Shown here piece after piece: positions 18,706-21,700 of a stretch of 64,000 nt of DNA. The stretch comes from Escherichia coli (lineage in GTDB: Bacteria > Pseudomonadota > Gammaproteobacteria > Enterobacterales > Enterobacteriaceae): assembly GCF_029227855.1 (NCBI RefSeq), contig NZ_CP074356.1; one strand, 5' to 3'. The stretch's first letter is position 1, and every line of letters begins with the position of its first letter. The position numbers were made by a program.

Positions 18706-21700
18706 TGATGAGGGACGTATTTGTATTAGTCGCGACTTGATCTGACACATGGCCTTGAAAGGTTGAGAGTTACCGGTTTTGATATGAGTGTCGAATCCTT
18801 ATCCAAAACAAGAGGTAACTCTCATGCTTCATACTGCCAATCCCGTCATCAAACACAAAGCCGGTTTGCTCAATCTGGCTGAAGAACTCAGCAACGTATC
18901 AAAAGCCTGTAAAATCATGGGCGTTTCGCGTGAAACGTTTTATCGTTACCGCGAACTGGCCGCTGAAGGCGGTGTGGATGCGCAGATTAATCGTAGTCGC
19001 CGCGCTCCTAACCTTAAGAACCGTACCGATGAGGCAACTGAACAGGCTGTTGTTGATTACACCGTCGCTTTCCCGACACATGGTCAGCACCGGGCCAGCA
19101 ACGAGCTGCGTAAACAGGGGGTTTTTATCTCCGACAGTGGTGTCCGTTCTGTCTGGTTACTCCATAACCTTGAGAATCTCAAAAGACGATACTGAACAAA
19201 TTTTATCAGGTGACGTTCCGTAAAAAGTTGTATGGAGTTCTCGATGCAGTCGGCGCGACTATCAGTACCCCCGCTGAACCCTGGACTATCGGGCCGCCGT
19301 ACTGGAGCATGTCACCCTGGCGTGCCGCTGGTTTTCCGCTAATGGTTTATTTCCTCTTTCTTTCCCGGCGAGAATTTATTTTAATCCGGAAGGATTATTT
19401 ATTTTCAGATAGGGACTCACATTAAACACGAAACATTTTAATTAATGCATGGCTGAATATGTATTACACAATGTCAGATATCGTAAAAGACCAGTGCAAT
19501 TCTATGTAAACTCTCTGACTGTTCATTTTATTTGTTGTTTCAGGGTCGGAACTCACCCTCAATAAACAACTGAATACGAGTAGATATTCATCGTCTGAGC
19601 TATATGGCTTTACACAATAGCCGACATGTCTTTTCTCAGTCAGGGATTTTACTTTTCCTCACTACGAAGTTGACGACTTCGATATGGGATAGACTCTTAA
19701 TTCAAGCAATTACTCTGCACAAGCATCAGGCAATCCAGCTCCAATATTTGTTATAAAATAATGCGTAACATTAATTTCACCAACAAAAAAAAGGTTTACG
19801 CTATCCCCTTGCCCTGGTATTTTACCATATTTACACCACACTTTTTTTGTATCTGGATCATTCTCTGATACGATTTTCGCCACTTGTTCCCTGGCCCTCA
19901 CCGTCAATGTTTTCTTAAACCTCCCCCCATCATCGATTGTTAGGGAAAAATAAGAAAAAAAATAATCACCTTCTACATTTGTGGATATTGATATATCCAC
20001 CGCTACATGCGGAAAAAAATCTGGGAGCCATGTAAAAACCCCATCACTTTCTGGTATTGCCATATAGTTTATGTAATGCTTACTTACAAGAGATTCATCT
20101 TTGTGTAAATAAAGATAAGTAGTCACGCATAAAAAAACAACGATTATAATAGCAAAAATAAATATTACCATCTTTGAGATGTTACTTGAGATAGCCAGCA
20201 TCTTGTAAAGCCTTTATCGTTTTTTTATGCTCTGGATTAATATAATCAATACATCTATTTGAGCAATCTTGTGTTAATGGACATGTCAACCCATGTTCAT
20301 TTACAGCCAAGTCTTTTTTATTATCTTCAATCATCTCAGAATGGGATAACTTTACTTTTCTGCCGTACATACCGAACATATTTAACCCGTAATCTCTAAT
20401 CTCTTTTTCATAACCCAGCCCTTTCGCTGATCGGCTAACACCAGCGTCATTTAATTTAGACACTCGACAAAATGCCATACAATGGAAAAATTGATCAGTC
20501 CCACCTAAATTTAATCTCTTCATATCATCATAAGTATCAGATAATATATCCCATGCTCTTTGATGGTTTAGTTGTTCTTTTTTTCGCATTAACGCTACAT
20601 CTGCAGGACTTAACCCTAATGGATCAATACCATTCACCGGATTCAGCGGATACGCATACAGACTCCATCCCCCCGCCAGCCCAATCGGGTCCTGAGCAAT
20701 ATATCGTCCCAGCAACGGATTGTAGTACCGGTTCCGGTTATAATACAGCCCTGACTCCTCATCGTGTTGCTGCCCTGGCAGACGGTACGGCTGGTGCAGG
20801 TGATGCGGGTTTTCCTCATTCAGCAGGTTTCCCCACTCATCATACTCCCCGCTCCACGCCGTATTGCCGTCTTCGCTGATGAGCGCCAGCGGCAGCCCCC
20901 GGTGGTCACAGTGATAAAGATGAATTTTTCGCTCAGGTAAATAAACCGGCTCTATCTGTGCCGCCAGCCGCTCCACCGTCAGCCCGCACTGTGCCAGCCA
21001 CTGGCGGCTTTCACTGCTCACGCGGTCTGCCCGGATTTCCCCCTCCAGCCTGTCCAGCAGCCGCACCAGTTCAGCCGGGAACACCACGCCGTGTCCGTCC
21101 TCGCTCCCTTCCTGCTGGAGCTTCTCCGCCAGGCTGCGGCGCTGCGCTTTCTCCCGCTCGCCGTTCTCTGTCTCGACCCGGATGAGCGGCGTGAAGCTTC
21201 CCGGCTGGTACACCGTCTGGATACGCGTGGTGTCGGTCTGTACTGTCGCCAGCCTGTCGCCGTCCCACCCGTACCACGTTACCTCCGGTTTACGCGACAG
21301 CGACATCCACCCCGTCAGGTCACGCTCCCGCCGCCATACCCGTTTCGCCATTCGCCATCCCAGCGGGTCGTAGAGGTAGCGGCTCTCGACCAGTGGCTCG
21401 CCATGCTGTATCCGCGTGTAGAACACCAGGCGGTGCTGGCTGTCGTAGTGGTAGTGGTGGGTCCGCTCGTCGTCCGTCCGTATCACACCCGCCGGGATGC
21501 GGTCCGTCTTCTCTGTCAGCCTGCCGTATTCATCGTGGCGGTAGACATAGTGCGCATCCTCCGCGATGCGGTTATCCGGCCACGCCGTGAGTGTACTGTC
21601 CGGGTGCAGCTCCGGGTCCGGCAGCCGGTTGCCCGCCGGGTCCGTGGCATACGGGATGCGGATGTCCAGGTCCGGTGCGAGGGTGCGTACACTCGCCAGC

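Follow-up and report, generated by a model that had tools for sequence, protein, structure and literature searches.

The closest described relatives of the element considered here, the C-terminal tip of a Rhs protein and the overlapping gene ybbD at the rhsD locus of an Escherichia coli genome (contig NZ_CP074356.1), are the prok-SAA proteins, bacterial homologues of animal serum amyloid A (SAA) that form the tips of polymorphic toxins. They belong to the Lipocone superfamily as defined by Burroughs, Nicastro and Aravind (eLife 2025; PMC12419801); the predicted activity of the family is the cleavage or exchange of lipid head groups, and the active site inferred for the superfamily consists of a His (helix H2), a Glu (H3), an Asp (H4), a polar residue four positions downstream and a Gly cap (PMC12419801). 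The immunity proteins of Lipocone-type toxins are transmembrane proteins or lipoproteins, from which these authors infer that the toxins act in the periplasm (PMC12419801). In 2020 an in-silico study of enterohaemorrhagic E. coli (EHEC) modelled the C-terminus of EDL933 RhsD (z0651) onto human SAA1, with a template modelling (TM) score of 0.623, and reported that the SAA family of Pfam (PF00277) is present in seven O157:H7 PAAR-Rhs proteins, for which its authors suggested a role in host immunity (PMC7216683). Binding of human SAA to E. coli OmpA has been reported as well (cited in PMC12419801).

Two further toxin/immunity pairs bear on the comparison. TelC of Streptococcus intermedius is an LXG-type lipid II phosphatase that is delivered by a type VII secretion system (T7SS) and paired with the immunity protein TipC; it is placed in the Lipocone superfamily in PMC12419801 and is the template for the chemistry proposed below. 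BteO and its immunity protein BtiO come from a type VI secretion system (T6SS) of Bacteroides fragilis (PNAS 2025; PDB 9UU0), and the toxicity of BteO is confined to the periplasm, also in E. coli (PMC12541434). It is reported to be non-enzymatic and to bind OmpA C-terminal domains, the activity assays having covered peptidoglycan glycosidase and amidase only, and its toxicity depends on R143/H144, H167/E168 and D187/D191, located on consecutive helices of a groove (PMC12541434).

The stretch of NZ_CP074356.1 analysed here is 64,000 nucleotides (nt) long and is referred to as the window; all coordinates are positions in it. It contains a full-length Rhs gene on the minus strand whose tip is, by profile and model, SAA-like, followed by an intact ybbD. 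We hold with high confidence both that the two form a toxin/immunity pair and that the tip belongs to the SAA-like family. The module is widespread and annotated and its likeness to SAA is already in the literature; since both the prok-SAA set and the SAA-like RhsD have been published, the tip does not represent a new class of effector.

A full-length Rhs gene with an SAA-like tip

The Rhs gene (20182-24393, minus strand; 1403 aa), identified from the list of open reading frames (ORFs), a Pfam scan, blastn comparison with K-12 and synteny, follows the gcl-allR-allA-allS-mnmH region of the window. It occupies the rhsD locus, with ybbP on one side and mnmH/allS on the other, as judged by synteny with K-12 and with strain JNEC-KY178, the latter matching the locus at 100% identity. 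The Pfam scan places DUF6531 at residues 46-123 (E 6e-18), at least 10 RHS_repeat matches with E < 1e-3, and the RHS core domain PF03527 at residues 1157-1193 (E 5e-17). Translation shows that the core ends in an 11-residue boundary motif of the PxxxxDPxGL type (residues 1251-1261; 20611-20643, minus strand), and the base composition changes here, from a GC content of 0.638 in the core (20614-24393) to 0.347 in the tip and 0.352 in the downstream ORF, against 0.548 for the whole window. The protein thus has the features of a Rhs polymorphic toxin, namely YD repeats, an RHS core ending in PxxxxDPxGL, a variable tip with a compositional break and a small downstream gene. C-terminal autoproteolysis is expected at this motif in Rhs and TcC proteins, and by analogy the DPLGL boundary is the expected site at which the predicted release of the tip would occur.

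The tip itself (20185-20610, minus strand; stop codon 20184-20182) is a 142-aa segment, SPADV...GYLK, numbered here with the L of DPLGL as position 1. A reading made from the sequence alone had described a switch from a GC-rich core to an AT-rich tip of about 150 residues after the DPxGL boundary, followed by an overlapping AT-rich 163-aa ORF with one transmembrane helix, and both descriptions hold: the GC content falls from 64% to 35% at the boundary, the tip being slightly shorter than estimated, and the ORF lies at 19710-20201 with a 20-nt overlap and a GC content of 0.352. The toxin/immunity arrangement proposed in that reading is likewise supported, by the RHS repeats, the core domain, the DPxGL motif, the compositional switch and a conserved membrane-anchored downstream gene.

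The tip alone matches Pfam SAA (PF00277) with E-values of 2.6e-4 to 4.2e-4. Searching 1.84 billion representative proteins with a profile of six close relatives recovered 148 homologs/families at E <= 1e-3, many of which are preceded by a Rhs DPxGL boundary. An alignment of 51 tip-family sequences (A2; 23-50% identical to the tip except for one close relative at 92%) gave a profile that matches SAA chains in the PDB, including 7zh7 (E 1.9e-15) and human SAA1 (4ip8; E 9.5e-13), and 34 of its 51 members match Pfam SAA individually. The AlphaFold2 (AF2) model built from the same alignment scores highly (predicted local distance difference test 96.5, predicted TM score 0.88) and has six predicted helices, at residues 3-34, 40-52, 57-79, 91-109, 117-124 and 130-138. 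When the PDB is searched with this model using Foldseek, the top seven matches are all crystal structures of SAA1 or SAA3 (probability 1.0, target TM score 0.65-0.74), and each of the matches after these has a probability of at most 0.13. Hydropathy is low throughout, with a maximum 19-residue Kyte-Doolittle mean of 0.55 that points to a soluble domain, and the isoelectric point (pI) is 8.3.

SAA homology, a four-helix core with a short fifth helix and low hydrophobicity are the attributes of the prok-SAA family, and all are present in the tip. The published Prok-SAA set includes HAU8267270.1, whose domain is identical in sequence to that of P0020, a homolog sharing 56% identity with the tip. 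On these profile and model data the tip is a bacterial SAA-like (prok-SAA, Lipocone superfamily) domain, predicted to be soluble and to consist of five to six helices. The suggestion in the sequence-only reading that it might be a distinct effector class is therefore not sustained, with P0020 in the published set, the likeness of the O157:H7 RhsD in print since 2020, and the structure prediction recommended there returning an SAA fold with AF2 and Foldseek.

Conserved pocket and cysteines

Comparison of 51-91 diverse homologs shows that D40, H44, E71, D101, N105 and G108 are invariant and that D74 and D97 are at least 90% conserved; every family-invariant residue is retained in the window tip. 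H44, E71 (with D74), D101, N105 and G108 make up the constellation described for the Lipocone active site, and the H44/E71/D101 pocket is predicted from this conservation to be a catalytic site. A second conserved feature is a twin CX3C pattern, with C45/C49 in helix 2 and C117/C121 in helix 5, which is kept in 90 of 91 homologs; the four cysteines are absent from animal SAA.

The partner gene ybbD

The gene downstream of the tip is an intact ybbD (19710-20201, minus strand; 163 aa), whose ATG lies inside the end of the Rhs gene such that the two overlap by 20 nt (20182-20201). The product matches the NCBIfam equivalog NF011298 over residues 1-163 of 163 (370.4 bits, cut-off 326), and Pfam PF26610 (YbbD_head) is recorded, from precomputed matches, for YbbD and its close homologs. 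The NF011298 score, the PF26610 assignment and the presence of the same family downstream of divergent tips show that this is a genuine gene and not a chance reading frame, and in strain JNEC-KY178 it is annotated as a 'YbbD family protein'. NF007301 gives a weak partial match to YbbD (60 bits, cut-off 373). A single strongly hydrophobic stretch is present at residues ~8-31 (Kyte-Doolittle 19-residue mean up to 3.0), and basic residues precede the membrane anchor in YbbD homologs. The soluble domain is acidic (pI 5.0), in contrast to the basic tip. Cys123 and Cys161 are either both kept or both lost across homologs, and this pairing suggests a disulfide in YbbD. A YbbD profile gave no significant match in the PDB, the best being an unrelated protein at E 0.038, and none to BtiO or OmpA-C.

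We surveyed the genes downstream of seven divergent tip homologs. In three of the seven loci a YbbD_head protein lies directly downstream of a homolog that is 35-50% identical to the tip, and in one more the partner is weakly YbbD-like (14.7 bits). Partners of ~160 aa with a transmembrane helix or lipobox and without detectable similarity to YbbD are found at two loci, and the remaining one is a 78-aa polytopic membrane protein; all seven are thus anchored in the membrane by a transmembrane helix or a lipobox. One of them (L008) has a lipobox followed by Asp (LLAAC-D). By the sorting rule of E. coli this Asp marks the L008 partner as a probable periplasm-facing inner-membrane lipoprotein. From its position, family and anchoring, YbbD is predicted to be the cognate immunity protein of the tip.

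Some possible relatives of YbbD were set aside. K-12 YbfC, encoded beside the rhsC orphan, was considered as a paralog and ruled out, both the protein and its tip being unrelated in sequence, and the partners at loci L010 and L012 score 0.5 and 2.8 bits in the profile search and are counted as membrane-anchored proteins only. We also note an array of Rhs orphan tips and their immunity genes in one enterobacterial chromosome (CP029992.1; 1800-6200 of locus L004) containing an Ntox16-like fragment, an SAA-like tip with YbbD_head, and TseH with Imm58, which indicates that the SAA-like/YbbD pair moves as a cassette among other toxin/immunity cassettes.

Comparison with related systems

The tip shares with prok-SAA proteins and animal SAA (PF00277; PDB 4ip8, 6pxz) its profile homology, the helical fold including the fifth helix, and the His/Glu/Asp..Asn..Gly residues, and it shares with the former the use as a Rhs toxin tip and the membrane-anchored immunity gene. 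The prok-SAA family is assigned to the SAA-Wnt clade of the Lipocones, and the enterobacterial subclade to which the tip belongs has VNEHGL where the clade has the H4 motif sNxxGR. Like most bacterial members it differs from animal SAA in having the four invariant cysteines and a C-terminal helix of 20 residues that extends past the SAA core. The nearest copies are in E. coli itself. The K-12 ylbH'-ybbD' region is 96% identical over the tip and ybbD, but the K-12 tip is without the N-terminal Rhs body and ybbD is frameshifted; the tip of EHEC EDL933 RhsD (z0651) is the one reported to be SAA1-like, and O157:H7 carries the fusion as in the window.

TelC is toxic only outside the cytoplasm and TipC acts at the outside face of the membrane, as proposed here for YbbD, although the pair differs in its delivery system (T7SS), its clade and the fold of its immunity protein. 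BteO is the one solved structure outside SAA that the model of the tip may resemble. Its residues R143/H144, H167/E168 and D187/D191 occur in the same order, and with the same DxxxD spacing, as H44, K70/E71 and D97/D101 of the tip, and its interface residues S118/V122/T126 and Q183 are in register with the helix 1 face A20/L24/Y28 and E93. BteO is larger, however, its fold comprising nine helices and two strands, and an N-terminal transmembrane helix of its own takes the place of a Rhs carrier; BtiO is a mimic of OmpA-C, whereas YbbD has no detectable resemblance to it. The A2 profile does not match BteO (9uu0) at E-values up to 10.

Distribution and origin of the fused arrangement

A stretch of 1.1 kb comprising the tip and ybbD is present in 2722 of 5426 complete E. 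coli genomes (coverage >=80%). In an evenly spaced sample of 30 rows of these matches, the contiguous, fused arrangement accounts for ~7, including O157:H7, and the two-piece arrangement of K-12 for ~16. O157:H7 strains have the fused arrangement as in the window, at 92-96% identity. In K-12 the tip and ybbD (96% DNA identity) lie downstream of a complete rhsD and its partner ybbC, and the annotation gives them as a Rhs fragment lacking its N-terminus (ylbH) and, after it, two short ORFs. These two 'hypothetical proteins' result from a frameshift in a T-run near codons 82-85 of ybbD (6496-6986 of the K-12 sequence L001, MC4100, compared with 19710-20201 of the window). Whether the tip and its neighbour are those of K-12 rhsD, a possibility raised in the sequence-only reading, thus has a divided answer: they are not the K-12 rhsD tip with ybbC, and they are 96% identical in nucleotide sequence to the orphan ylbH/ybbD downstream of rhsD-ybbC.

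Comparison by blastn shows how the two arrangements are related. Window 24700-20639 corresponds to the K-12 rhsD core (93.7% identity; L001 808-4862) and window 20890-19000 to the K-12 orphan region (95.8% identity; L001 5807-7696), and the K-12 rhsD tip and ybbC (L001 4863-5806) are missing from the window. The two segments overlap at 20639-20890 (minus strand), ~250 nt that are homologous to both the end of the K-12 rhsD core and the 5' core remnant of ylbH and that form the recombination junction; a three-way alignment puts the change of the window sequence from main-gene-like to orphan-like near 20850. The simplest reading of these alignments is that homologous recombination between the main core and the orphan core remnant deleted the rhsD tip and ybbC and fused the orphan tip to the full-length gene in the same reading frame. 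Activation of orphans by recombination is a known route at Rhs loci, and the comparison with K-12 shows the tip to be exchangeable for that of rhsD. An origin of the AT-rich segment in a phage, defence or mobile element was set aside, since thousands of E. coli genomes have the segment in synteny at the rhsD locus.

Other features of the window

Downstream of ybbD there is a 95-nt remnant (19249-19343, minus strand) that encodes the PAAR-like start and shares 78% identity with the opening 95 nt of rhsD. It is also present in K-12, where it is annotated as a truncated hypothetical protein, and it may mark where the Rhs element once ended, or a second rhs gene that has been lost. An N-terminal fragment of an IS481-family transposase (18788-19195, plus strand; 88 bits, cut-off 224), the counterpart of the K-12 pseudogene ylbG, lies between the Rhs element and mnmH.

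Elsewhere, the window contains a giant adhesin region of the BapA/SiiE type (39605-60374, minus strand, together with 36267-39601 and 60483-61838). Its 5790-aa ORF has Ca-stabilised tandem repeats and immunoglobulin-like domains, and overlaps by 116 nt an adjacent 1170-aa ORF with a C-terminal signal for type I secretion; the pair resembles a single gene of ~6900 aa that has been broken in two, either by a frameshift or by a sequencing error. Flanking genes encode a type I secretion ABC transporter of the LssB type, an HlyD adaptor and a TolC-like channel.

Proposed mode of action and alternatives

For the toxin we infer a delivery route, a site of action, disulfides, a substrate and an enzymatic step. 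The tip would lie within the Rhs shell, be cut free by autoproteolysis following DPLGL and be delivered into a neighbouring cell, probably via a T6SS encoded elsewhere in the genome. It would fold in the oxidising periplasm, where two disulfides of the twin CX3C would staple helix 5 to helix 2, and the His44/Glu71/Asp101 pocket would act on envelope lipids on the outer side of the inner membrane by attacking their phosphate-linked head groups. The chemistry would be head-group hydrolysis, for which lipid II and undecaprenyl-pyrophosphate-linked carriers have the best precedent in TelC, with phospholipids as an alternative substrate, and the outcome would be failure of the cell wall or envelope. 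YbbD, held by its inner-membrane anchor with the acidic domain in the periplasm, would bind and block the basic toxin and so protect sibling cells. As a whole, a Rhs toxin of the rhsD locus with an SAA-like tip that attacks periplasmic lipids and is neutralised by YbbD seems to us probable on balance. Its parts differ in strength: action in the periplasm is likely, given the invariant cysteines, the membrane-anchored partners, the paired cysteines of YbbD and the same conclusion in the Lipocone paper, and an enzymatic step by the tip is a more tentative proposal, whose chances we put slightly below even.

Several observations weigh against this proposal. We know of no SAA-family protein for which enzymatic activity has been shown, and the searched literature contains no experiments on the tip, YbbD or any prok-SAA toxin, nor an experimental characterisation of either K-12 module (rhsD tip/ybbC or ylbH/ybbD). 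The clade motif sNxxGR is only partly kept, the VNEHGL of the tip having the N and G, Val as the small residue and Leu for Arg. Membership of the TelC family is not seen, as the A2 profile matches no TelC chain in the PDB at E-values up to 10, so the analogy with TelC depends on what a single computational paper argues for the superfamily. Next to the Rhs gene the window has neither vgrG nor any T6SS gene, and the protein contains a literal KPAARQGD with a Pfam PAAR_motif match that is not significant (E 0.29), so that delivery by a T6SS is put forward provisionally. Finally, comparing the tip of the window with the K-12 orphan tip gives a ratio of non-synonymous to synonymous substitution (dN/dS) of ~0.45; this is a weak sign of constraint, as the 17 differences behind it (6 synonymous and 11 non-synonymous) are too few to decide the matter.

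The most substantial alternative is that the tip is not an enzyme, and that it kills because its four-helix groove binds peptidoglycan-anchoring domains of the OmpA/Pal type, or another envelope protein, stoichiometrically in the periplasm, with YbbD acting as a decoy for the groove. The periplasm-only toxicity of BteO and its binding of OmpA C-terminal domains (PMC12541434), the correspondence of its essential residues with H44, K70/E71 and D97/D101 in order and DxxxD spacing, and the reported binding of E. coli OmpA by human SAA (cited in PMC12419801) are all consistent with this. We nonetheless consider it rather unlikely: invariance of the His, Glu and Asp over a very divergent family is more like that of a catalytic site than of a binding surface, the BteO assays covered glycosidase and amidase and not lipid-carrier cleavage, such that an enzymatic reading is compatible with them, and sequence links neither the tip to BteO nor YbbD to BtiO or OmpA-C in the profile searches described above. 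By the same analogy there is a possibility that BteO is itself a Lipocone enzyme.

The remaining alternatives concern the target and the activity of the module. A host-directed SAA mimic with an effect on inflammation or chemotaxis, the role proposed for EHEC RhsD z0651, would account for the resemblance to SAA1 and for PF00277 in the O157:H7 PAAR-Rhs proteins (PMC7216683), but is very improbable, as both this locus and those of distant bacteria, some from environmental metagenomes, have a dedicated, conserved and membrane-anchored partner that overlaps the toxin gene, and such a partner is the signature of interbacterial toxin/immunity pairs. Furthermore the module is found in commensal and laboratory E. 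coli, the four invariant cysteines and the predicted catalytic residues set the bacterial family apart from animal SAA, and the descent proposed in the literature runs from bacterial toxin to animal SAA. It is also possible, if improbable, that the module is intact in sequence and idle in this strain, being neither expressed nor exported and a by-product of Rhs-tip recombination. It is a silent, promoterless orphan in K-12 and about half of the sampled genomes, the K-12 immunity gene is frameshifted, T6SS genes are not adjacent and the PAAR match is weak, and the dN/dS derives from few changes; on the other side, this copy has two uninterrupted frames and a tip that reads on from a complete Rhs gene, many genomes including O157:H7 have the same fusion, and no family-invariant residue has been lost.

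The value of the locus is practical and lies between two published positions, the claim that BteO is non-catalytic and the Lipocone hypothesis of lipid head-group cleavage. It offers an intact toxin and an intact immunity gene in a tractable E. coli, with the K-12 orphan and its broken ybbD as a natural control, and this combination could settle the mechanism and the original role of the SAA fold. A broader proposal, which we regard as doubtful, is that the tip, BteO and animal SAA have one fold and one His/Glu/Asp pocket, and that this pocket is catalytic on periplasmic undecaprenyl-phosphate-linked wall precursors. If this were true, the OmpA mechanism of BteO would need revision, with OmpA serving for docking or entry and not as the lethal target, SAA would be the descendant of an antibacterial lipid-carrier phosphoesterase, and no genetic system for its proof would be simpler than the native tip/YbbD pair of E. 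coli.

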